A stretch of DNA of 64,000 nt, from contig WFOA01000123.1 of the NCBI GenBank assembly GCA_015488325.1, positions 1,226-65,225 on the forward strand, given 5' to 3'. Below the pieces are notes generated by a model, which worked only from the letters and a program-made list of their open reading frames with translations, was not told the DNA's origin and did not search any database. The DNA is from Acidimicrobiia bacterium (lineage in GTDB: Bacteria > Actinomycetota > Acidimicrobiia > Spongiisociales > ZC4RG35). Positions 16,043-62,558 of the stretch are shown piece after piece. Within the stretch, counting starts at the first letter, position 1, and each line of letters starts with the position of its first letter. Position numbers and translations under genes: made by a program.

Positions 16043-16117
16043 GGTGGTCAGGGGCGGGGTCGAACCGCCGACCTCCGGTTTTTCAGACCGGCGCTCTACC
16101 AACTGAGCTACCTGACC
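16043..16117 (-). tRNA. tRNA-Phe (anticodon GAA)
   Basis: Minus strand reads GGTCAGGTAGCTCAGTTGGTAGAGCGCCGGTCTGAAAAACCGGAGGTCGGCGGTTCGACCCCGCCCCTGACCACC. It forms a cloverleaf with anticodon loop CTGAAAA and a GTTCGA T-loop; CC is encoded, the terminal A is not. Confidence 0.85.
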
Positions 16118-16146
16118 GGGGCGGCCGCCGAGGACGGCGCCTCGGC

Positions 16147-16224
16147 TGGCGGGGACGACGGGATTTGAACCCGCGACCTCCGGCTTGACAGGCCGGCGTG
16201 AACTCCAGACTTCACCACGCCCCC
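16147..16224 (-). tRNA. tRNA-Asp (anticodon GTC)
   Basis: Minus strand reads GGGGGCGTGGTGAAGTCTGGAGTTCACGCCGGCCTGTCAAGCCGGAGGTCGCGGGTTCAAATCCCGTCGTCCCCGCCA. Anticodon loop CTGTCAA, GTTCAAAT T-loop, CCA encoded. Confidence 0.8.
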
Positions 16225-50803: not shown

Positions 50804-51592
50804 ATGACCGACGATCGACGAGTGGCGCTCGAAGCAGCCCGTGCCGGGGCGGAGCTGGTCAGGTCCCGGTTCGGAGGCAGGATCGACACGTCCTTCAAAG
50901 GCGAAGTCGATCCCGTCACCGACGTCGACCGCGCGGCGGAGCGGGCGATCCTCGACACGTTGCACCGGTTCAGACCCGACGACGCCGTCCTCGCCGAAGA
51001 GGGTGGACGCACCGGCCGGCTCCGGGGGCGTGTCTGGATCGTCGACCCCCTCGACGGCACCGTCAACTTCCTCCATGGAATCCCCCACGTCGGGGTGTCG
51101 GTGGCGTTGTGGGAAGACGGCACACCCAAGGTGGGTGTGGTCGTCGATGCCATCGGCGGCGACGAATACGTGGCGGCGGTCGGTGAAGGGACGACCCGTT
51201 CCGGCACACCCGTCACGGTCTCGGCCCGACCCCTCTCCGACGGCCTCGTCGCCACCGGCTTCCCCTACGACCGCCGGGACCACGCCGCCGACTACGCCGC
51301 CACGGTCGGCGCCGTCCTCCGTCGCGCCCAGGGGATCCGCCGGTTCGGCGCAGCCACCCTCGACTTCTGCTGGGTCGCCGACGGACGGTTCGCCGGCTTC
51401 TGGGAGTTCGGCCTCGCACCCTGGGACGTCGCCGCCGGGATCCTCTTGGTCACCGAAGCCGGAGGGACCGTCACCGACCTGGACGGAAACCCTGCCGGTC
51501 TCGAGTCGAATGCCTGGGTGGTGACCAACGGCGTCGCCCACGAAGAGCTCCTCCGGACCGTCGCCGAGCACCGACCCCGCCACCTGCGATGA
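50804..51592 (+). CDS. inositol monophosphatase-family protein (SuhB/ImpA-like)
   Basis: ATG at 50804 after GAAAGG gives MTDDRRVALEAARAGAEL ... VLAEEGG ... WIVDPLDGTVNFLHGIP ... WDVAAGILL. Confidence 0.8.
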   Translation: MTDDRRVALEAARAGAELVRSRFGGRIDTSFKGEVDPVTDVDRAAERAILDTLHRFRPDDAVLAEEGGRTGRLRGRVWIVDPLDGTVNFLHGIPHVGVSVALWEDGTPKVGVVVDAIGGDEYVAAVGEGTTRSGTPVTVSARPLSDGLVATGFPYDRRDHAADYAATVGAVLRRAQGIRRFGAATLDFCWVADGRFAGFWEFGLAPWDVAAGILLVTEAGGTVTDLDGNPAGLESNAWVVTNGVAHEELLRTVAEHRPRHLR

Positions 51593-53130
51593 AGGTCCTC
51601 CTCGCCGACGCGGTCGTCACCGCTGGAGGTCGACAGGGAGACGCCGTCCTCGTCGACCGGGGCCGGATCGTGGCCGTCGGCCGTCGGGACGATCCCCGGT
51701 TCGCATCGCGGACACCGGTCGTCCACGACGGCGTGGTGGTCCCCGGCCTCGTCGACTCCCACCTCCATCCCGTCGGCTACGCCACCACCGTCGCCGGGCT
51801 CAGCGTCGGCCCCGCCGCCTGTTTCGACGATCTCGGGGAGCTGCTCGGAGCCGCCGCGGCCCAGCGGACGCCCCAGAGCGCCCTCGTTGCCGTCCGTCTC
51901 GACGAGGACGGTCTGGCGGAAGGGCGACTCCCCACCGCCGACGACCTCGACCGCTGGACCGGCGACGTCCCCACCGTCGTGTACCGCTACTGCGGGCATG
52001 TGGCGGTGGCCAACCGTGCCGCCCTCCGCCTCGCCGGGGTCGACGCCCGGACCACCGATCCGCCCGGAGGGATCATCGACCGGACGTCGGAGGGGGACCC
52101 CACCGGGGTGCTCCGCGAAACCGCGATCGGCCTGGTCGCCTCCGCAGTGGCCCCGCGGGTGCCTCCCCCCGGACCCGACGACGTCCTCGCCGCCTTGGGG
52201 TCGCTCACCGCGCTGGGTCTCACCCGCATCGTCGCCATCGCCGCCGCCGGGTCCAACGACCTGTGGTGTGGTCCAACCGACGAGGTGGCAGCCCTCGCCG
52301 CCATCGCCGACCGGCTCCCCCTCGACGTCCACCTGTTCGTGGCGACCACCGACCGTCGCCAGCTCGAACGGTCGGCCCGCACCGTCGCCGACGCCGGTGG
52401 CCGCCTCCACTTCGCCGGCGTCAAGCTCTTCGCCGACGGCAGCTTCGGCGGCCGCACCGCCGCCCTCCATCGGCCGTACAGCGACGATCCCGACAACCGG
52501 GGGACGCTCCGCCTCGACCCGACCCGTGACCGTGAGCTCGTCGCCGCGACCCGGGACCTGGGCGGAACGGCCGCCATCCACGCCATCGGCGATCGTGCCA
52601 TCGACGCGGTGCTCGACCTCGCCGCAGATCCGACGGCTCCCCCCGTCCGGATCGAACACGTGTCGCTCCCCACCGAAGAGGCCATCGTCCGGATGGCAGA
52701 TCTCGGGGTCGTCGCGTCGGTGCAGCCACCGTTCCTCGCCTCGGAGGCAACGTGGCTGCCGGGGCGTCTCGGCGACCGGATGGAACGGGTCTACCCCTTC
52801 GCCACCCTCCGCCGGCATGGAATCCCCACCGTCGCCGGTTCGGACTCCCCCGTGGAATCCCCCGACCCGCTGGCCGGTATCGCCGCGGCCCGGCGGCGTG
52901 ACGGGTTCTCTTCTGTCGAGAGGCTCTCCGGATCCGACGCCCTCGGCCTCTACACCGACGAGGCCCACCGGGTCCTCGGCCTGCGCGCTCCCCTCCAGCC
53001 CGGCGCACCGGCCGACCTCGTCGTCCTCGACGGTGACCCCACCGTGGCGGACCCCTCGACCCTCAGGGTCGTCGCCGTCTACAAGGCGGGCGAACCCGTC
53101 GTAGCGACCCCTCTGCCCTGGCCGGGATGA
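51589..53130 (+). CDS. metal-dependent amidohydrolase (amidohydrolase-3 family)
   Basis: 513 aa with ... PGLVDSHLHP ..., VKLFADGSFG and ... GSDSPV ... metal-ligand motifs. ATGA overlap with the preceding IMPase gene. Confidence 0.8.
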   Translation: MKVLLADAVVTAGGRQGDAVLVDRGRIVAVGRRDDPRFASRTPVVHDGVVVPGLVDSHLHPVGYATTVAGLSVGPAACFDDLGELLGAAAAQRTPQSALVAVRLDEDGLAEGRLPTADDLDRWTGDVPTVVYRYCGHVAVANRAALRLAGVDARTTDPPGGIIDRTSEGDPTGVLRETAIGLVASAVAPRVPPPGPDDVLAALGSLTALGLTRIVAIAAAGSNDLWCGPTDEVAALAAIADRLPLDVHLFVATTDRRQLERSARTVADAGGRLHFAGVKLFADGSFGGRTAALHRPYSDDPDNRGTLRLDPTRDRELVAATRDLGGTAAIHAIGDRAIDAVLDLAADPTAPPVRIEHVSLPTEEAIVRMADLGVVASVQPPFLASEATWLPGRLGDRMERVYPFATLRRHGIPTVAGSDSPVESPDPLAGIAAARRRDGFSSVERLSGSDALGLYTDEAHRVLGLRAPLQPGAPADLVVLDGDPTVADPSTLRVVAVYKAGEPVVATPLPWPG

Positions 53131-53136
53131 ACGGCT

Positions 53137-53367
53137 TCACGGGCGCAGGGCGGGGGCGACGTCGGTCTCGTAGTCGGCGTGGCGGCCCGTCGCCTTCTTC
53201 GAATACACCAGGTCCCCGTCGACGGTGACTTCGAACACCCCTCCCGAGGACGGGATGAGCCTGACCTCGAAGGTCTGGCCGAACTCTTCGAAGATCTCAC
53301 TGGCCATGCCCACGGCACGGTCGGTGTAGTTTCAGGTGCGGCAGAACTCGATGGTGACGGTACGCAT
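53137..53367 (-). CDS. selW: SelW/Rdx-family selenoprotein; the in-frame TGA at 53332..53334 is read as selenocysteine
   Basis: Minus-strand translation from ATG 53367 is MRTVTIEFCRT-U-NYTDRAVGMASEIFEEFGQTFEVRLIPSSGGVFEVTVDGDLVYSKKATGRHADYETDVAPALRP, 80 aa, with stop TGA at 53137..53139. It has the CxxU redox motif and the GGVFEV..G.L..SKK core that is diagnostic of SelW-like proteins. It is not in the ORF track because of the internal TGA. Confidence 0.7.
53304..53320 (-). promoter_or_regulatory. candidate bacterial SECIS hairpin downstream of the selW UGA
   Basis: RNA CCGUG-CCGUGGG-CAUGG (5-bp stem including one G-U, apical loop containing GU) begins 12 nt after the UGA. That spacing fits known bSECIS elements, which start about 11 nt downstream. 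Confidence 0.4.
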
Positions 53368-53416
53368 GCCCCGAGGATACGACCCAAATCCCCCCGGGCG
53401 GTAACGTGCCGCTGCC

Positions 53417-55372
53417 ATGACCTTCGACTACAGCTCCGTCGACTCCGCAACCGTCGAATCCACCGTCGAGGAAGCCCTCGACCGCGCCGAAGGACTCGTC
53501 GCCCGGGTCGTCGACCCCGACACACCCCCCACCTTCGACGGTGTCCTCGGCCCCCTCGACGACCTCGCAGACCTGCTGACCCGCACCTTCGGGATGTCGG
53601 GATTCTGCGGGTACGTCCACCCCGACCCCGACACCCGGGAAGCCGGGAAGAAGGCGGAGACCCGCCTGGGGAGTTGGGCGTCGGATCTGTGGTTCCGCGA
53701 CGACCTGTATCGGGCGGTACGGCGCTTCGCCGCCACCGACGAGGCTTCCTCCCTCACCGGCGAACGTGCGCGGCTCCTCCGCTTCGTCCTGCGTGACCTC
53801 CGACGGGCCGGGCACGAACTCGCCCCGGCCGACCGGGAGCGGGTCCGCCGGCTCACCCAGCGTCTCGTCGAGTTGGGGGTCGCCTTCGAACGGAACATCG
53901 CCGAGCACCGAGACCACCTCGCCCTCACCCGTGACGACCTCGAAGGGCTCCCCGACGGCTACGTCGACGGCCTGGAGCGGGGAGAAGACGGACGGTTCCT
54001 CGTGACGATGGCCTATCCCCACGTCGTCCCGTTCATGGAGCAGGCCCGCCGCCGCGACCTTCGTGAACGCCTCTCACGAAAGTTCAACAGCCGGGCCGTC
54101 GAAGCCAACCGCCCCATCCTCGCCGAAGCCGTCGAGGTGCGCCGTGAGATCGCCCAGATCTTCGGGCGTCCCTCCTGGGCCCACCACCAGCTCGAAGAAC
54201 GCATGGCGAAGACGCCCGAAGCCGTCGAAGCCTTCTACGAGGACCTGTTGCCGCCCCTCACCCGAGCCGCCGAAGCGGAGATCGCACGGATGACCGAGCT
54301 CCTCGTCGCCGACGGCGAAGAGCCACCCCTTCAGCTCTGGGATTGGCGCTACTACGACACGGTGCTCCGCAAGACCGAATACGGGGTCGACCCCAACGAA
54401 GTGGCCGCCTACTTCCCCCTGGAACGGGTCCTCGAAGGGCTGTTCGACCTCACCGGCACCGTCTTCGGGCTGCGATACGAACAGGTCGACGCCCCGGTGT
54501 GGCATCCCGACGTGGTCGCCTACGCCATCGTCGACCGGGACAGCGACCGCCAGATCGCCACCTTCTACGCGGATCTGTTCCCCCGCGAAGGCAAATTCAG
54601 CCACGCGGCGGCGTTCACCCTCGTCCCCGGCAGACGGCTGCGGGACGGGAGCTACCAGCGTCCCGTCTCCGCCATCGTCGCCAACTTCACCAAACCGACC
54701 GACCGCCGACCCTCCCTCCTCCAGCATTCCGAGGTCACGACCCTCTTTCACGAGTTCGGCCATGTCCTCCACCAGACCCTGACACGCACCGAACTCGCCT
54801 CGTTCTCGGGCACCAACGCCGAGCGGGACTTCGTCGAAGCCCCCAGCCAGATCATGGAACATTGGACCTGGCAGCCGGAGATCCTCGCCCGGTTCGCCCG
54901 GCACCACGAAACCGGGGAGCCGATCCCGGCCGAACTGGTCGAACGCCTCACCGCGGCCCGTCGACTCAACATCGGGTTGTCCACCCTCCGTCAGATCCAG
55001 TTCGGTCTCCTCGACATGTTCCTCCACGGCGCGTCCGAACCGGTCGACCTCGACGAGGCGGTCCGGCGGGCGACGGCGGTGACCCTCCTGCCCTACCACG
55101 AGGGAACGTTCTTCCCGGCCAGTTTCGGCCATCTTCTCTCCGGCTACGACGCCGGCTACTACGGCTACCTGTGGTCCGAGGTGTACGGAGACGACATGTT
55201 CAGCCGTTTCGAGGCCGAAGGGATCGACAGTCCCGAAGTGGGTCGGGCCTACCGCCGCGAGATCCTCGAGACCGGCGGCAGCCGAGACGCCGTCGAACAT
55301 CTCCGGGCGTTCCTCGGACGTGAACCCGACGCTCGGGCGTTCCTCCGCCACCTCGGGATCGGATCCGACTGA
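53417..55372 (+). CDS. M3-family zinc metallopeptidase (oligopeptidase A / peptidyl-dipeptidase Dcp-like)
   Basis: 651 aa with the HEFGH zinc site (TTLFHEFGHVLHQ) and a downstream EAPSQIMEHW glutamate ligand region. Confidence 0.85.
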   Translation: MTFDYSSVDSATVESTVEEALDRAEGLVARVVDPDTPPTFDGVLGPLDDLADLLTRTFGMSGFCGYVHPDPDTREAGKKAETRLGSWASDLWFRDDLYRAVRRFAATDEASSLTGERARLLRFVLRDLRRAGHELAPADRERVRRLTQRLVELGVAFERNIAEHRDHLALTRDDLEGLPDGYVDGLERGEDGRFLVTMAYPHVVPFMEQARRRDLRERLSRKFNSRAVEANRPILAEAVEVRREIAQIFGRPSWAHHQLEERMAKTPEAVEAFYEDLLPPLTRAAEAEIARMTELLVADGEEPPLQLWDWRYYDTVLRKTEYGVDPNEVAAYFPLERVLEGLFDLTGTVFGLRYEQVDAPVWHPDVVAYAIVDRDSDRQIATFYADLFPREGKFSHAAAFTLVPGRRLRDGSYQRPVSAIVANFTKPTDRRPSLLQHSEVTTLFHEFGHVLHQTLTRTELASFSGTNAERDFVEAPSQIMEHWTWQPEILARFARHHETGEPIPAELVERLTAARRLNIGLSTLRQIQFGLLDMFLHGASEPVDLDEAVRRATAVTLLPYHEGTFFPASFGHLLSGYDAGYYGYLWSEVYGDDMFSRFEAEGIDSPEVGRAYRREILETGGSRDAVEHLRAFLGREPDARAFLRHLGIGSD

Positions 55373-55563: not shown

Positions 55564-55758
55564 ATGACCGAAGTTCTCAAGGGAAGAGCCATCAAGGGGG
55601 TGACTCGACCCAACAAACAGTTCAAAGAGGATCGTGTCTGCGCCAAGAAGGGCTGCAACACCAAACTGAGCCGGTACAACAAGCGGGAGTACTGCTACGC
55701 CCACGCTCCCGTCCGGTTCCCCCGGGTCAGGGGCAGGATCGTTCCTGAAGGCACCTGA
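55564..55758 (+). CDS. small zinc-ribbon hypothetical protein (64 aa)
   Basis: ATG 8 nt after GGAAGGAGG. Reads MTEVLKGRAIKGVTRPNKQFKEDRVCAKKGCNTKLSRYNKREYCYAH (CxxC ... CxxH). Followed by a hairpin at 55820..55847. Confidence 0.45.
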   Translation: MTEVLKGRAIKGVTRPNKQFKEDRVCAKKGCNTKLSRYNKREYCYAHAPVRFPRVRGRIVPEGT

Positions 55759-55847: not shown

Positions 55848-55983
55848 GCTTCTGTTCGGCCGTCGCCCGGATCGACGTCCGCCCAGACAGCCCGAACCCG
55901 CTCGGCCCCTTCGATGGGGCCTTCCGGCCCTGGTGCCCCCGGGACGTTCATGGAACCCTCAGGCCAGCGACGGACGGAGGACC

Positions 55984-57534
55984 ATGCCCTCATTCGACGA
56001 CGTGACGCATGCGGTACGGGACATCGTCACCTCCCCTCGGCTCACCTACCGCCAGCGTCTCCACCAACTCGCCCTCGCCGCCGAAGATCTGCTGCCCTAC
56101 CCGGAGATCTCCGCCGACGCCCGCCGGGCCATCGACGAAGGCGTCGTCTGTGACCTCGCCGAAGGTCACGCCCCCTACCGCCCCCGATATGTCCTGCCCG
56201 ACTACGCCACCGCCCTCCGCCAAGGGTCCGACTATCTGGAGCTCGACCCTCCGCAGAGCCTGGAAGAGGCCGTCGACTTCCTCCAGATCCTCTACCACCA
56301 CATCCCGTCCATCACCGGCCTGCCCGTCTACTTCGGGGATCTGGACACGATCCTCGGGCCGTACCTCGACGACACCTGGACCGACGACCGCCTCGACCGC
56401 CTCTTCACGCGGTTCTGGCGTTACCTGGACCGCACCATCCCCGACGCCTTCGCCCACGCCAACATCGGCCCGGACGACACCCCGATCACCCGGTCGATCC
56501 TGCGGGTGGATCGCGCCCTGGCGCAGGTGGTACCCAACCTCACCTTGAAATGGGATCCGGTGGTGTCCGGAGACGGACTGTTGCGGGAAGCGGCCGTCGC
56601 CATCGCCGAAGTGAACAAACCGCACATCGCCAACGACCCGCTGATCCGCCGCGACTTCCCCGAGGGGTACGGGGTCGTGAGTTGCTACAACACCCTCCCC
56701 CTCGGCGGCGGCTCCCACACCCTCGTCCGTCTCAACCTGCACGCCAGCCTCGCCCACCACACCGGCTCGATCGAGCGTTACCTCACCCGCACGCTGCCCG
56801 ACCACGTCGAACTCACCTTCGAGGTGATGGAGGCCCGTATCCGTTTCCTGGTGGAAGAGGCCGCCTTCTACGAGCACTCGTTCCTCGTCGACGAAGGCCT
56901 CATCCATCCGGAGCGGTTCACCGCCATGTTCGGGATCTTCGGCGTGGCCGAACTGGTGGAAGGGTTGCTCCCCGGCTGCACCTACGGGCGCCACGACGAA
57001 GCCGCCGACCTGGCCCGGCAGGTGATCGACACGATCGCCGACATCGTCCGGTCACGGCCGGTCCCCTACTGCCGGAACGACCGCGCGCTCCTCCACGCCC
57101 AGTCGGGGATCGCCGACGACGTCGGCGTGACCGCCGGGGCGAGGGTGCGGATCGGAGCCGAACCCGAACTCGTCGACCACATCCTCACCGTGGCCCCCCA
57201 TCATCCCCGCTTCCCGGCGGGCATCAGCGACATCTTCGCCCTCGAACGGTCGGTCCGCGCCAACCCCCAGGCGATCGCCGACGTGACCAAAGGGGCCTTC
57301 GCCCGGGGGATGCGGGAGATCACCTTCAACGTCGAAGGCTCCGACCTGGTCCGCGTCACCGGATACATGGTCCGCCTCTCCGACGTCGAGAAGCTGCGCC
57401 GGGAGGCTTCACGGATCAACAGCACCGGACTCGGCGCCGACTCCATCGAGAACTGGCGGCTCCTCGATCGCGTCCCCAGGGTCATCGGAATGGAGACCGA
57501 CCCGCGGATGCGGTCGCTCCTCCGTTCCGGATGA
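55984..57534 (+). CDS. yjjI: YjjI-family glycyl-radical enzyme (DUF3029), substrate unknown
   Basis: ATG at 55984 after GGAGGA. 516 aa, the same length as E. coli YjjI. C-terminal glycyl-radical signature DLVRVTGYMVRLS (Gly codon 57361..57363) lies about 57 aa from the end. The stop overlaps the start of the activase gene (ATGA). Confidence 0.7.
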   Translation: MPSFDDVTHAVRDIVTSPRLTYRQRLHQLALAAEDLLPYPEISADARRAIDEGVVCDLAEGHAPYRPRYVLPDYATALRQGSDYLELDPPQSLEEAVDFLQILYHHIPSITGLPVYFGDLDTILGPYLDDTWTDDRLDRLFTRFWRYLDRTIPDAFAHANIGPDDTPITRSILRVDRALAQVVPNLTLKWDPVVSGDGLLREAAVAIAEVNKPHIANDPLIRRDFPEGYGVVSCYNTLPLGGGSHTLVRLNLHASLAHHTGSIERYLTRTLPDHVELTFEVMEARIRFLVEEAAFYEHSFLVDEGLIHPERFTAMFGIFGVAELVEGLLPGCTYGRHDEAADLARQVIDTIADIVRSRPVPYCRNDRALLHAQSGIADDVGVTAGARVRIGAEPELVDHILTVAPHHPRFPAGISDIFALERSVRANPQAIADVTKGAFARGMREITFNVEGSDLVRVTGYMVRLSDVEKLRREASRINSTGLGADSIENWRLLDRVPRVIGMETDPRMRSLLRSG

Positions 57535-58412
57535 GCCTCGCCGTCCGTCATCCCCTCGACCGCGACGGCGAGATCCTCGAAGTCGCCGGGGTGGCCCCGT
57601 CGAGTTTCGTCGACGGGCCAGGCAACCGCTACGTCCTGTTCCTCCAAGGCTGCAACTTCGACTGTCCCGCCTGCCACAACCCGACCACCATCGGGCGCTG
57701 TGACGGCTGCGGCGTCTGCATCGACGTGTGCGCCCTCGAAGCCCTCACCCTCCCCGTCACCGGCACGGTCCTCTTCCATCCTGACCGCTGCGACTCGTGC
57801 GGAGACTGCCTCCGGGTCTGTCCCACCGACGCCGACCCCACCATCCGACCGCTCCCCGTCGACGAGGTGGTGTCCGACATCGCCGTCCACGCCCCGTTCG
57901 TCTCCGGCGTCACCGTGAGCGGCGGCGAACCGACCCTGCAGCTCGACGGCCTGATCCGGCTGTTCAGCCGCCTCCGCGACGACCCCGGCCTCGCCCACCT
58001 CGAACGTCTGGTGGACACCAACGGCAGCCTCGACCGGGACGGCTGGGAACGGCTGCTGAAGGTGATCGACGGGGCGATGGTCGACCTCAAAGCCGCCTCC
58101 CCCGAGCGGCACCGTCGCCTCACCGGACACGACATCGAACCGGTCATCGAGTCGCTCCGGCTCCTCGCCGAACGGAACAAACTCACCGAGGTCCGCCTGC
58201 TCGTCATCGAAGGTGAAACCGACGACGAGACCGAGCTCCTCGCCTGGGCCGGGATCGTCCGGTCGGTAGACCCGTCGGTCCCGGTACGGCTGATGCCGTT
58301 CCGACGCCAGGGAACCCGACCGCTCGCCCGGCGATGGCATGACACGACACCCGAAGCCATCGCCCGGGCCCGGACCGTCCTCGCCGCCGCCGGACTGCGG
58401 AACGTCCGTTGA
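57531..58412 (+). CDS. yjjW: glycyl-radical enzyme activating protein (radical SAM, YjjW type with ferredoxin-like inserts)
   Basis: SFVDGPGNRYVLFLQGCNFDCPACHNP is the CX3CX2C radical-SAM site. Two extra Cys clusters (CDGCGVCIDVC, CDSCGDCLRVC) are typical of GRE activases. GGEPTL is the SAM-binding motif. Confidence 0.8.
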   Translation: MSLAVRHPLDRDGEILEVAGVAPSSFVDGPGNRYVLFLQGCNFDCPACHNPTTIGRCDGCGVCIDVCALEALTLPVTGTVLFHPDRCDSCGDCLRVCPTDADPTIRPLPVDEVVSDIAVHAPFVSGVTVSGGEPTLQLDGLIRLFSRLRDDPGLAHLERLVDTNGSLDRDGWERLLKVIDGAMVDLKAASPERHRRLTGHDIEPVIESLRLLAERNKLTEVRLLVIEGETDDETELLAWAGIVRSVDPSVPVRLMPFRRQGTRPLARRWHDTTPEAIARARTVLAAAGLRNVR

Positions 58413-58452: not shown

Positions 58453-60861
58453 GTGACCACCCCCGGGCTGCAAGCCTTCACCGAGTTCAGGGCATCCCTC
58501 GTCGAGGCGCCGGTCGGCGACGGAGGCGTCGACGTGTGTGAGGCCCTCACCTCCCTCCTCGACGCGGCCGTCGAAGAGCTCGCCTCCGACCTGGGTGGAG
58601 GTGCAGCGGTGGTCGCCGTCGGCGGATACGGCCGTCGGGAACAATGCCTGTGGTCGGACCTCGACGTCATGGTGCTGCACGCCGGGGACGACCCCGAGCC
58701 GCTGGTCCGCAGCGTCCTCTACCCCCTGTGGGACGCCCACCTGGCGGTCGGTCACGCGGTCCGCACCGTCGCCGAATGCCGCGCCGCCGCCGTCGACGAC
58801 TTCGAGACGCTCACGTCGCTGCTGTCGGCTCGGCTGGTCGCCGGCGACCAGGGCCTCTACGACGACCTGATCGCCACCCTCACCGATCTGGTCCGACACC
58901 GGCCCCTCACCCCCGACCTCGTCACCCGAGAACGTGAACGCAGGGCACGCGAGCCCTACCCGGTGATGGCGGCAGACCTGAAGGAGAGCCGAGGGGCCCT
59001 CCGCACCCACCAGGGGTTCTGGTGGGAGCGGCGGCGGGCCCAGCTCGTCGGGTTCGCCACCCACGACCCGTCGGTAGAGGAGACCGACGCCCGTCGCGTC
59101 CTCCTCCAGGCCCGCAACGCCCTCCACGCCGTGTCCGGACGGGCGATGGACCGCTACGTCGTCGACCTGCGGGAAGCGGCCGCCGCCTGGCTCAGAACCG
59201 ACGTCTACGAGCTGTCTGCCCGCCTGATGCATGCCCTCGAACGGGGTGACCGGCTGGCCGACCGCTGGTGGCCCGACCTCCACACCGAACACGACCCTCT
59301 GGTCGGGTTCGGACGGAGACTGTTCGGACGGGTCCGCAGTCGCTTCGGCCCGGACGCCGACGGCACCCCCGCCGACTCGGTCCTGGAGGTGGCGGTGAGG
59401 GCAGCCGGCCGCCGCTCGGGTGTCTCCTTACATCCCCGGGAAGAAGAGCTGATCCGCCATGCCGAACCGGCCACCTGGACGGCGGCCGACCGGGCCGCGT
59501 TCGTGAAGCTGCTCGCCGCCGGCGAACGCGGTCGGGCCGTCTTCGGTCTCCTCGAAGACCTGGGCTGGGTGGACCGCGAGCTGCCCGAGTGGGGACCGGT
59601 CGCCACCGCACCCCAGCTTGCGCCATTCCACGACCATCCCGTCGGAGCCCACCTGTGGCGGACCGCGGCCGAGATGCGGAACCTCATCGAAGACCACGGG
59701 CCGGTCGGTCAGGTCGCCGCCGAGCTCGGCGACACCGAAGAGTTGTTCCTCGCCGCGTTCTTCCACGACATCGGCAAGGCACGTGACGGCGACCATTCGG
59801 AGATCGGCGCCGAACTCACCTCCGGTTTCCTCCGCCGTCACGGGTTCGGAGCGGCGACCTCCGGTGTGGTGGTCGACGTCGTCCGTCACCACCTGCTGCT
59901 GTCCGAGACCGCCACCCGCCGCGACATCGACGACCCGGCCGTGATCGACGAAGTCGCCGCGGTCGTCGGTGATCTGCGTCGACTCCAGGTCCTCTATCTG
60001 GTCACCATCGCCGACCTCCGGGCCACCGGCACCACCATGTGGAACTCGTGGCGAGCGACGCTGCTGCGGCGCCTGTACGAGCGGGTCCGGGAAGCCCTCG
60101 AAGCCGGCGGTGCCGTCCCGGCGACCCCGGACGTGGACTCGGTCCTCGCCGTCTGCGACGCCCACCAGGACCGCCGGGCGGTCGAAGAGCACGTGGCGGC
60201 GATGCCTTCGGACTACCTGGCCACATCCAGCCCCACCGAGGTCCTCTGGCATCTCCAGGTCGCAGACACCCTCGACGGGCCGGCGGCGGTCGTCCCCGAC
60301 CCTCAGGATCCAGGACGGGTGCTGGTGGCGGGCCGTGACCGGGCCGGGTTCCTGGTGGCGGTGACCCGGGCGTTCACCTCCCACGGCGTGGCCGTCCTCG
60401 ACGCCCGTCTCCGCACCCGAGCCGACGGTGTCGCCCTCGACACCTTCCACGTCGTCGACGACCGGACCGGCGACCCGGTCCCGCCCGGGCGGTGGCCGAA
60501 GGTGGCAGCCGACCTGGTGGATGGACTCGAAGGGCGCCGCGACCTGGCGGTGGCGTCCCGTCGACGGACCGAGAGCTACCGCCCTCGACGTCCCATGGCA
60601 CGGGCCGCCGTATCCGTCCGGCGGGAAGGCAGATACACCATCGTCGAGGTCCGAGCTCCCGACCGGGTGGGTCTCCTGGCCGAGATCGTCGAAGCCCTCT
60701 ACCTGGAAGGCCTCGACATCCACCTCGCCCGGATCGACACGATGGGAGGCGAAGCCCGTGACGTGTTCTTCACCCGCCGGGTCGGCGGCATCCCCATATT
60801 GGTGGAGGAGGAGCTGGCGGCCCTCCGGCGAAGGCTGGAGGACCGCCTCGACTCCCTGTAG
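58453..60861 (+). CDS. glnD: [protein-PII] uridylyltransferase/uridylyl-removing enzyme
   Basis: 802 aa with a nucleotidyltransferase domain (VVAVGGYGRREQCLWSDLDVMVLH), an HD domain (HDIGKARDGDH ... HHLLLS) and two C-terminal ACT domains. Confidence 0.85.
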   Translation: MTTPGLQAFTEFRASLVEAPVGDGGVDVCEALTSLLDAAVEELASDLGGGAAVVAVGGYGRREQCLWSDLDVMVLHAGDDPEPLVRSVLYPLWDAHLAVGHAVRTVAECRAAAVDDFETLTSLLSARLVAGDQGLYDDLIATLTDLVRHRPLTPDLVTRERERRAREPYPVMAADLKESRGALRTHQGFWWERRRAQLVGFATHDPSVEETDARRVLLQARNALHAVSGRAMDRYVVDLREAAAAWLRTDVYELSARLMHALERGDRLADRWWPDLHTEHDPLVGFGRRLFGRVRSRFGPDADGTPADSVLEVAVRAAGRRSGVSLHPREEELIRHAEPATWTAADRAAFVKLLAAGERGRAVFGLLEDLGWVDRELPEWGPVATAPQLAPFHDHPVGAHLWRTAAEMRNLIEDHGPVGQVAAELGDTEELFLAAFFHDIGKARDGDHSEIGAELTSGFLRRHGFGAATSGVVVDVVRHHLLLSETATRRDIDDPAVIDEVAAVVGDLRRLQVLYLVTIADLRATGTTMWNSWRATLLRRLYERVREALEAGGAVPATPDVDSVLAVCDAHQDRRAVEEHVAAMPSDYLATSSPTEVLWHLQVADTLDGPAAVVPDPQDPGRVLVAGRDRAGFLVAVTRAFTSHGVAVLDARLRTRADGVALDTFHVVDDRTGDPVPPGRWPKVAADLVDGLEGRRDLAVASRRRTESYRPRRPMARAAVSVRREGRYTIVEVRAPDRVGLLAEIVEALYLEGLDIHLARIDTMGGEARDVFFTRRVGGIPILVEEELAALRRRLEDRLDSL

Positions 60862-60873
60862 GTACCGGTCGGT

Positions 60874-61212
60874 TCAGAGGGCGTCCCGGTCGCGCTCGCC
60901 GGTCCGGATCCTGATCACCGCGTCGACGTCGGTGATCCAGATCTTTCCGTCGCCGATCTGGCCGGTGACGGCGGCCGAACGAACCGCGTCGGCGACGGCA
61001 GCGGCGTCGTCGGCGTCCACCAACACCTCCAGCTTGGCTTTGGGCATGAACTCCACCTTGTATTCGGCGCCCCGGTACGTCTCCGAATGTCCGCCCTGGC
61101 GGCCGAATCCTTTCACCTCGGTGACGGTGATCCCTTTCACGCCGACCTTGCGCAACGCCTCTTTGATCTCGTCGACCTTGTGCGGCCTGACGACCGCGGT
61201 TACCAGCTTCAT
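60874..61212 (-). CDS. glnK: nitrogen regulatory protein P-II
   Basis: ATG at 61212 gives MKLVTAVVRPHKVDEIKEALRKVGVKGITVTEVKGFGRQGGHSETYRGAEYKVEFMPKAKLEVLV, the T-loop RGAEY. 112 aa. Downstream of amtB. Confidence 0.9.
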   Translation of the reverse strand: MKLVTAVVRPHKVDEIKEALRKVGVKGITVTEVKGFGRQGGHSETYRGAEYKVEFMPKAKLEVLVDADDAAAVADAVRSAAVTGQIGDGKIWITDVDAVIRIRTGERDRDAL

Positions 61213-61226
61213 GTGCTCCGCTCCTC

Positions 61227-62558
61227 TCAACCTGCGGACAGCGCCGACACGTCGGGACCGTACCCGGGGGATCCGTGCTCGGCGACGTCGAGCCCTTCGA
61301 TCTCCTCCTCCGGCGGGACCCGCAGCCCGATGGTCGCCTTGATCGCGTAGAACAGCGCCCCGGAGGTGACGGTGACGAACACGAAGACGGCCACCACCCC
61401 GATGATCTGAGATCCGAGCTGCGCCCAGCCACCCCCATAGAACAGACCGGTGTCGGTGGCCAACAGGCCGACCATCAACGTCCCGAAGGCTCCGCAGACA
61501 CCGTGGACCGAGACGGCCCCGACGGGGTCGTCGATCCCGCGGCGGTCGAAGAAGATCACCGAGTAGACGACGATGATGCCTGCCAGCGCCCCGATGACGA
61601 GCGCCCCCCAGTTGGAGACGTTCGCCGTCCCGGCGGTGATCCCCACGAGGCCGCCGAGCACCCCGTTGCCGGCCATCGCCACGTCGGGTACGCCGGTCTT
61701 CAACCAGATGGTGATGGTCGCCAGCACACCCCCGGCTGCGCCGGCGATGAGGGTGGTGACGGCGATCCTCGGCACCGCCGCGTCGGCGGCGAGCTGCGAA
61801 CCGGGGTTGAAGCCGAACCAGCCGATGAAGAGGATGAAGACACCGACGATGGCGAAGGGGATCGAATGACCCGGGATAGCCCGGGGTTTTCCGTCGGCGT
61901 CGTACTTCCCGATGCGGGGTCCGAGGACCAACGCCCCCATCAGAGCCGCCCATCCTCCGACACCGTGGACGATGGTGGAACCGGCGAAGTCGATCATCGG
62001 GGTGGAGAGCTGAGCCAGCCAGCCGCCGCCCCAGAGCCAGTGGACGACCACCGGATAGATGATGGCGGTGATGACGAAGCTGTAGACGAAGTAGCTCTTG
62101 AACCTGGTGCGTTCCGCCATCGCGCCGGAGACGATCGTCGCCGCGGTGGCGGCGAACGCCACCTGGAACAGGAAGAAGGTGGCGAGGGACAGATTCCCGA
62201 AGGTCCCTTCGGTGAAATGACCAGGGTCGAGGAACCACCCGTTCGTCCCGAAGAAGGCGTTCCCCGCCCCGAACGCGATGGCGAACCCGATCGCCCCGAA
62301 GGCGAGCACCCCCGCCGAGAAGTCCATCAGGTTCTTCATCATGATGTTCGCCACGTTCTTGGCACGGGTGAGCCCCGCCTCCACGAGGGCGAACCCCGCC
62401 TGCATCAGGATGACCAGGATCGCAGCGGTCACGATCCAGATGTTGTCGAGGGTCGCCTGCACCGACTCGGCGGTGATCTCCTGCGCCCAGGCGGGGCTGG
62501 CCGACACGAGGGTCAGCAGGGCGGTCGTCGCCGCGACGGACAGCACTCTTCGTCTCAT
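61227..62558 (-). CDS. amtB: ammonium transporter
   Basis: Signal peptide then QAGFALVEAGLTRAKNVANIMMKNLMDFS ..., the Amt/MEP family. 443 aa. Confidence 0.9.
   Translation of the reverse strand: MRRRVLSVAATTALLTLVSASPAWAQEITAESVQATLDNIWIVTAAILVILMQAGFALVEAGLTRAKNVANIMMKNLMDFSAGVLAFGAIGFAIAFGAGNAFFGTNGWFLDPGHFTEGTFGNLSLATFFLFQVAFAATAATIVSGAMAERTRFKSYFVYSFVITAIIYPVVVHWLWGGGWLAQLSTPMIDFAGSTIVHGVGGWAALMGALVLGPRIGKYDADGKPRAIPGHSIPFAIVGVFILFIGWFGFNPGSQLAADAAVPRIAVTTLIAGAAGGVLATITIWLKTGVPDVAMAGNGVLGGLVGITAGTANVSNWGALVIGALAGIIVVYSVIFFDRRGIDDPVGAVSVHGVCGAFGTLMVGLLATDTGLFYGGGWAQLGSQIIGVVAVFVFVTVTSGALFYAIKATIGLRVPPEEEIEGLDVAEHGSPGYGPDVSALSAG

Follow-up and report, generated by a model that had tools for sequence, protein, structure and literature searches.

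The window analyzed here is a stretch of 64,000 nucleotides from a contig of an Acidimicrobiia bacterium. Its minus strand holds a short SelW-like reading frame that is interrupted at the twelfth codon by an in-frame TGA. This raises the question whether the codon is decoded as selenocysteine (Sec) in a functional gene, or whether it is a true stop, a codon for another residue or an error of the sequence. Based on the evidence below, we consider the SelW-like gene a real feature that is very probably functional (probability roughly 0.88). It is predicted from its sequence to encode a 76-residue thioredoxin-fold protein of the Rdx (SelT/SelW/SelH) type, of the bacterial "SelW-like" kind, with the active site Cys9-x-x-Sec12.

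The SelW-like gene and its reading frame

The SelW-like/Rdx selenoprotein ORF occupies positions 53137..53367 on the minus strand and comprises 76 codons followed by a terminal stop (product MRTVTIEFCRTU...ALRP). Translation of the minus strand from 53367 to 53137 reads MRTVTIEFCRT-stop-NYTDRAVGMASEIFEEFGQTFEVRLIPSSGGVFEVTVDGDLVYSKKATGRHADYETDVAPALRP-stop, in which the single internal stop is the TGA at 53334..53332. Read as selenocysteine, this codon (53332..53334, minus strand) provides U12 of the motif C9-R-T-U12. The first residue of this CxxU redox motif, Cys9, is encoded by a TGC at 53341..53343 (minus strand), and the gene ends with a TGA at 53137..53139 (minus strand). An earlier interpretation made without database searches (the sequence-only reading) had proposed this gene; our re-translation reproduced its sequence and coordinates exactly, and corrects the product length from 80 aa to 76 residues.

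The start codon is the ATG (Met1) at 53365..53367 (minus strand). Homologues start 10–11 codons before the TGA, and several of them have an in-frame stop just 5′ of the methionine equivalent to Met1. Another in-frame ATG, located 17 codons further upstream (53418..53416, minus strand), was considered as a start and rejected, as it finds no support in the homologues; it overlaps the ATG of an M3 peptidase gene (53417, plus strand) on the opposite strand.

Stop codon usage in the window was determined from 41 long ORFs, which end in TGA (34) or TAG (7), and the terminal stop of the SelW-like gene is itself a TGA. UGA is thus an ordinary terminator here, and an internal UGA therefore needs a local recoding signal.

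Similarity to Rdx proteins

With U written as C, the protein scored 75.7 bits against the Pfam Rdx profile (PF10262, gathering score 22.6), matching profile positions 1–65 of 74. The fragment after the TGA scored 45.9 bits by itself, so that approximately 30 bits come from the sequence before and immediately after the TGA. The NCBIfam model TIGR02174 (CXXU_selWTH) was passed as well, with 57.9 bits at a cut-off of 34.2, and the SelW/Rdx relationship that had been proposed therefore stands with two profiles above their curated cut-offs. The score for the equivalog NF041051 (SelTWH_Campy), 76.8 bits, is under its cut-off of 88, which places the protein outside this subfamily.

Among solved structures the best match is 2fa8 (Atu0228; E = 5e-12), whose CTQC is aligned on CRTU, followed by further Rdx proteins: 3dex (SAV_2001), 2oka, 2ojl, 2obk and 2p0g. 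The CTQC of 3dex and 2oka likewise falls on CRT(U). Human C17orf37 and mouse SelW (2npb, E = 0.004) are also among the matches. A metagenomic Cys form of 71 aa (P0120) carries C-E-P-C in the columns of C9-R-T-U12. The CxxU motif is thereby upheld: in the solved Rdx proteins and P0120 alike, U falls on the second CxxC cysteine, which is the catalytic Cys position. The ORF, its family membership and this placement of U are direct observations, and the similarity to the solved members suggests a thioredoxin-like fold for the SelW-like protein. The solved Cys-type Rdx proteins align with residues 3–63 and share the GG(V/L)FE(V/I) core, but they are approximately 105 aa long, with Cys instead of Sec and W/L-rich residues after the motif, whereas the present protein has 76 aa, carries U and has a tail that follows the pattern YSKKATGRHA(D/E)YE. 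Mammalian selenoprotein W (2npb) belongs to the same family and has its CxxU at the same position, though it is only a distant relative.

A 2005 study of the Sargasso Sea described bacterial CxxU SelW-like proteins as its largest family, with 48 sequences (PMC1088965). In abundance they ranked first among the selenoprotein families of the GOS survey (427 Sec and 56 Cys forms; PMC2398784), and an analysis from 2006 found few Cys homologues and suggested Sec as the original state (PMC1794560). The bacterial SelW-like selenoproteins of these studies share with the present protein a length of approximately 75–80 aa, an N-terminal CxxU, a "selenoprotein W-related" domain, a SECIS hairpin directly 3′ of the UGA whose small apical loop contains a G, a strong predominance of Sec over Cys forms, and routine misannotation. 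They differ in nothing essential; the present copy comes from an Acidimicrobiia-type MAG and has its own hairpin register. On every sequence-level criterion, the gene is a member of the bacterial SelW-like family. The family is well known and its misannotation a recognized problem; within it the gene is nothing out of the ordinary.

Annotation in public assemblies and databases

In public assemblies, the locus carries a 5′-truncated CDS at 53137..53307 (minus strand), which encodes 56 aa from Met21 and lacks strand β1 and the CxxU motif. This call of the 3′ part is tagged PF10262 Rdx. The gene had been proposed to be unannotated and skipped by gene callers, which is correct for the full ORF with its active site but not for the part from 53307 to 53137, which is called and has its PF10262 tag. 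A database entry of 56 aa that is 100% identical and begins at Met21 (P0001) is present on contigs of several ENA "REYS20-1_SAMN122393xx" assemblies and of the NCBI MAGs GCA_015490925.1 and GCA_015492815.1, always with the same neighbors, and the same gene arrangement was found in a third MAG, GCA_015485415.1.

A database protein search identified 191 relatives, 120 of which are listed. All 120 listed relatives have 43–71 aa, and none of them covers more than 78% of the query. Except for the full-length Cys form P0120 (71 aa), their gene calls begin after the TGA and are without the CxxU. At the position of Met21, the start residue chosen by the callers, 40 of the 78 distinct sequences have Met and 35 have Leu. 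As the calls for the SelW-like gene begin after the TGA, the gene is annotated, yet truncated and devoid of its active site. This truncation, universal among the listed database entries of this clade, is one of two mildly new points of our analysis. Many of the 120 listed 5′-truncated relatives bear the JGI label "selenoprotein W-related protein".

Conservation of the in-frame TGA

A scan with one genome per species yielded 558 relatives, from which the best 80 loci were kept and aligned with the window to give 81 ungapped sequences. According to their record labels, these loci are derived from Acidimicrobiia, other Actinomycetota, Chloroflexota, Gemmatimonadota, Verrucomicrobiales, Latescibacterota, Krumholzibacteriia and others. 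The tblastn matches cross the stop, and a C-x-x-stop is present at the aligned position in 80/80 of the best loci. In all 81 aligned sequences the codon of U12 is TGA (columns T13, G14 and A15 are invariant). The sequence-only reading would have been contradicted by truncating stops in close homologues; the TGA is kept at the U12 codon in every one of the 80 best loci, with no scattered truncation. An automated motif count returned a single TAG (L021) besides 79 TGA, but this was a false upstream motif and the aligned column of that locus reads TGA.

The Cys at position -3 from the TGA is invariant in the 78 distinct sequences, and further conserved residues are found at -8 (I/V/L), -6 (I/L/V), -5 (Glu) and -4 (Tyr/Phe). 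Over the nine codons 5′ of the TGA, the mean column entropy is 0.90, 0.79 and 1.27 at codon positions 1, 2 and 3, respectively. The 20 codons 3′ of the TGA show the same pattern (1.09, 0.86 and 1.42). This codon-position pattern and the conserved residues 5′ of the TGA indicate that the parts on either side of the TGA are translated in the same frame. Both the invariance of the TGA and the coding constraint upstream of it are observed directly in the alignment.

Over the gene region of 284 nt, TGA included, six independent assemblies that elsewhere show 9–75 SNPs per 20 kb do not differ at all, so that a sequencing error can be ruled out.

A SECIS-like hairpin downstream of the UGA

The SECIS element of E. 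coli fdhF lies within the coding sequence as a hairpin that directly follows the UGA and carries G/U in its apical loop. The window has a SECIS-like hairpin that shares these features (53302..53322, minus strand; 12–33 nt after the UGA), in a register that we designate type A. Its stem is formed by pairing of 53320-53314 with 53310-53304 around a GUG apical loop (53313-53311), with outer pairs extending to 53326..53298. The loop (CGUGG in a 5-nt version) starts 20–21 nt after the U of the UGA. When the 37 nt from the UGA were folded, the hairpin reached -13.3 kcal/mol (z = -1.72), and 9 of 200 shuffled sequences were as stable; a longer stretch of 71 nt was no more stable than its shuffles (z = +0.40). 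As the DNA has a [G + C] content of 69%, hairpin stability alone proves little.

We therefore rely on comparative pairing. The 81 sequences split into two hairpin registers, type A and type B, which follow lineage. Type A is found in the window and 38 loci, mostly labeled Acidimicrobiia, with the loop CGUGR, and pairs alignment columns 25–32 with 38–45 (53322..53302 in the window). Of its cells, 92.4% are paired (across 38 sequences) with 17 double-sided changes, counted as sequences tallied and not as independent events; none of 500 shuffles scored as high, and slid controls gave 20–40%. Compensatory changes include C-G to U-A at columns 27/43 and A-U to G-C at 26/44. Type B comprises 42 loci from other phyla and some Actinomycetota (for example L027:10052-10068), and pairs columns 31–36 with 42–47, so that its stem is located 4 nt further from the UGA than that of type A. 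Many type B loops are GGUCU, others AGUUU, AGGAU or AGUAU. In this group, paired cells make up 91.3% and there are 24 double-sided changes (again sequences tallied), with 0/500 shuffles as high and slid controls at 10–62%. The GGUCU loop of type B presumably resembles that of fdhF; the type A hairpin of the window differs in its GUG/CGUGR loop and in a distance to the UGA that is shorter by 4 nt.

When each register was tested in the other group, 57% and 64% of cells were paired, with no excess over shuffles. With neither register holding up outside its own group, a single common hairpin for all 81 sequences was rejected. The paired bases of type B lie in codons with joint amino-acid changes (GTC/ACG, GCC/GCG, ACC/GTG and ATC/ATG), as a constraint on the RNA predicts; selection at the protein level does not explain these changes. 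The sequence-only reading had named a bacterial SECIS as a check of its claim, and comparative pairing in types A and B indeed yields a SECIS-like hairpin with covariation 3′ of the UGA. This covariation is a direct observation, and so are the two lineage-specific hairpin registers, which are the other mildly new point.

The one gene for a Cys form that was available (n = 1, anecdotal) has no comparable hairpin at the equivalent place (z = +0.78). An Rfam search of the hairpin region (up to E = 10) gave no family; Rfam apparently contains no fitting bacterial SECIS model. Eukaryotic SECIS elements differ from the hairpin described here, as they are located in the 3′ UTR and have a different structure (PMC1088965).

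Search for selenocysteine machinery and other selenoproteins

With ARAGORN, no tRNA-Sec was detected in the 64-kb window and the 81 loci (±10 kb around the related genes). Local tblastn searches with approximate E. coli SelD and SelB queries gave no match in 1.49 Mb (window and loci). To the right of the window, the next 10 kb (including L087:1-3000) contain rpsF-ssb-rpsR-rplI-dnaB and no sel genes. As had been stated for the window before, no selA, selB, selD or selC was found there. The absence of sel genes from the window, the 10 kb beyond it and ±10 kb of the related loci shows only that they are not linked to the SelW-like gene. No RNA genes were detected in the window other than those for tRNA-Phe(GAA) and tRNA-Asp(GTC) at 16043..16224 (minus strand), and an Rfam search over the whole window found these two tRNAs and nothing else. 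A crude scan of the window for in-frame TGA codons and coding composition, aimed at further selenoprotein candidates, returned ordinary gene ends only.

Within the class Acidimicrobiia, selA, selB (divergent), selC and selD are reported from 84/84 complete Actinomarinales genomes, and the most abundant predicted Actinomarina selenoprotein is described as an "uncharacterised" family of 78 aa without a database match (preprint, 10.64898/2026.04.03.716425). Judging from size and class, this family may be the same SelW-like family, hidden by truncated annotation. Our literature search found no paper on the SelW-like family specifically in Acidimicrobiia, only this Actinomarina preprint, in which SelW is not named.

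Genomic context

The SelW-like gene is divergent from a gene for an M3 peptidase (53417..55372, plus strand; 441 bits), with the two starts 49 bp apart, and convergent with a gene for an Amidohydro_3 protein (51589..53130, plus strand; 233 bits), with the stops 6 nt apart. A simple promoter/terminator scan found nothing, and thus no sigma-70-like promoter in the intergenic region between the SelW-like and M3 peptidase genes (53368..53418).

The order M3 peptidase, Rdx, Amidohydro_3, inositol phosphatase and Lnt is kept in 11–28 of the type A (Acidimicrobiia-type) loci, in which the neighboring proteins are only 40–70% identical. Synteny with such diverged neighbors indicates that the TGA-containing gene was inherited vertically and that its TGA was kept over a long divergence. 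As the neighbors differ in other phyla, we draw no functional link from them. Two loci labeled Kiloniellaceae (L028) and Acidobacteria (L048) have a type A hairpin and the synteny with Amidohydro_3 and inositol phosphatase, extended in L028 to Lnt; these contigs are probably mis-binned or mislabeled.

Other features were noted on the far side of the M3 peptidase gene. A Cys-rich ORF of 64 aa (55564..55758, plus strand; …RVCAKKGCNTKLSRYNKREYCYAH…) has the pattern C-x4-C-x12-C-x2-H and no Pfam match; public assemblies contain a call for it, and it is conserved next to the M3 peptidase gene in 16 related loci. Further along, 55933..58400 holds genes for a YjjI-like glycyl-radical enzyme (620 bits) and, after it, a radical-SAM/4Fe-4S activase, and approximately 58453..62558 is a nitrogen-regulation cluster of an HD+ACT protein (GlnD-like, 802 aa), P-II and an ammonium transporter.

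Alternative explanations

Public callers annotate exactly the fragment from Met21, and the Sec machinery was not seen in the sequence covered (window, 10 kb beyond and related loci). Both would fit a relic gene, in which Sec decoding has been lost, the UGA truly terminates and no more than a fragment of 56–58 aa is made from Met21 or GTG19. Such a fragment, however, would be without strand β1 and the entire redox motif (Rdx profile positions 1–18), and its supposed internal start is Met in only 40/78 sequences, with Leu in 35/78. Coding constraint acts on the codons 5′ of the TGA, the window sequence has an intact hairpin, and the U12 codon is TGA in 80/80 relatives, never TAA, TAG or a frameshift. 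We regard a relic as unlikely. Another scenario retains recoding but inserts a residue other than Sec, for example Cys by means of a SelB-dependent Cys-tRNA, or Trp or Cys by near-cognate read-through stimulated by the hairpin. As the inserted residue is not told by the sequence, the hairpin and the conservation would look identical in this case. Against it stands that a plain TGC or TGT would give Cys at no cost and is used by 0/80 of the best relatives, that UGA is a normal stop here, and that the family is predominantly Sec (427 Sec vs 56 Cys in GOS; PMC2398784). We consider this scenario very unlikely.

That the ORF arose by chance, or that a sequencing or assembly error produced a false stop, is an a-priori possibility only. 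With a Pfam Rdx score of 75.7 bits, a gene that is identical in six assemblies and a TGA that is conserved in 80 other species, it is extremely improbable.

Proposed mechanism of UGA decoding

For the functional selenoprotein gene that we favor, we propose that translation starts at the ATG at 53367 and that the ribosome would then reach the UGA at codon 12. The mRNA hairpin 12–33 nt downstream, with its small apical loop containing G/GU approximately 21 nt after the U of the UGA, would act as a bacterial SECIS and recruit SelB-GTP-Sec-tRNA(Sec), so that selenocysteine would be inserted instead of termination. At the final UGA of the gene, which has no such hairpin, translation would terminate. 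The product is expected to cycle between the selenol/thiol and selenenylsulfide states, as a small thiol-dependent oxidoreductase. The dependence on SelB and tRNA-Sec, the incorporation of selenium and the redox role of the SelW-like protein are what we infer, in the case of selenium incorporation and redox function from membership in the family.

Implications

Conceptually the gene brings nothing new, as no selenoprotein family known from marine bacteria is more abundant than the CxxU SelW-like proteins. Every close database relative of the gene is stored as a 5′-truncated call without the active site, and such truncation distorts surveys of selenoproteomes and trace elements that are based on standard gene calling. 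The two hairpin registers form a clean natural data set on the constraint that a SECIS imposes over an overlapping protein sequence. More tentatively, the distinct SECIS register of the Acidimicrobiia type may reflect co-evolution with a divergent SelB, and the SelW-like gene, syntenic class-wide, may be among the selenoproteins that keep the Sec trait in Acidimicrobiia; we offer these two parts as one joint reading, conceivable but on balance somewhat doubtful. For the organism itself, the analysis identifies the Acidimicrobiia-type MAG population as a likely selenocysteine user.
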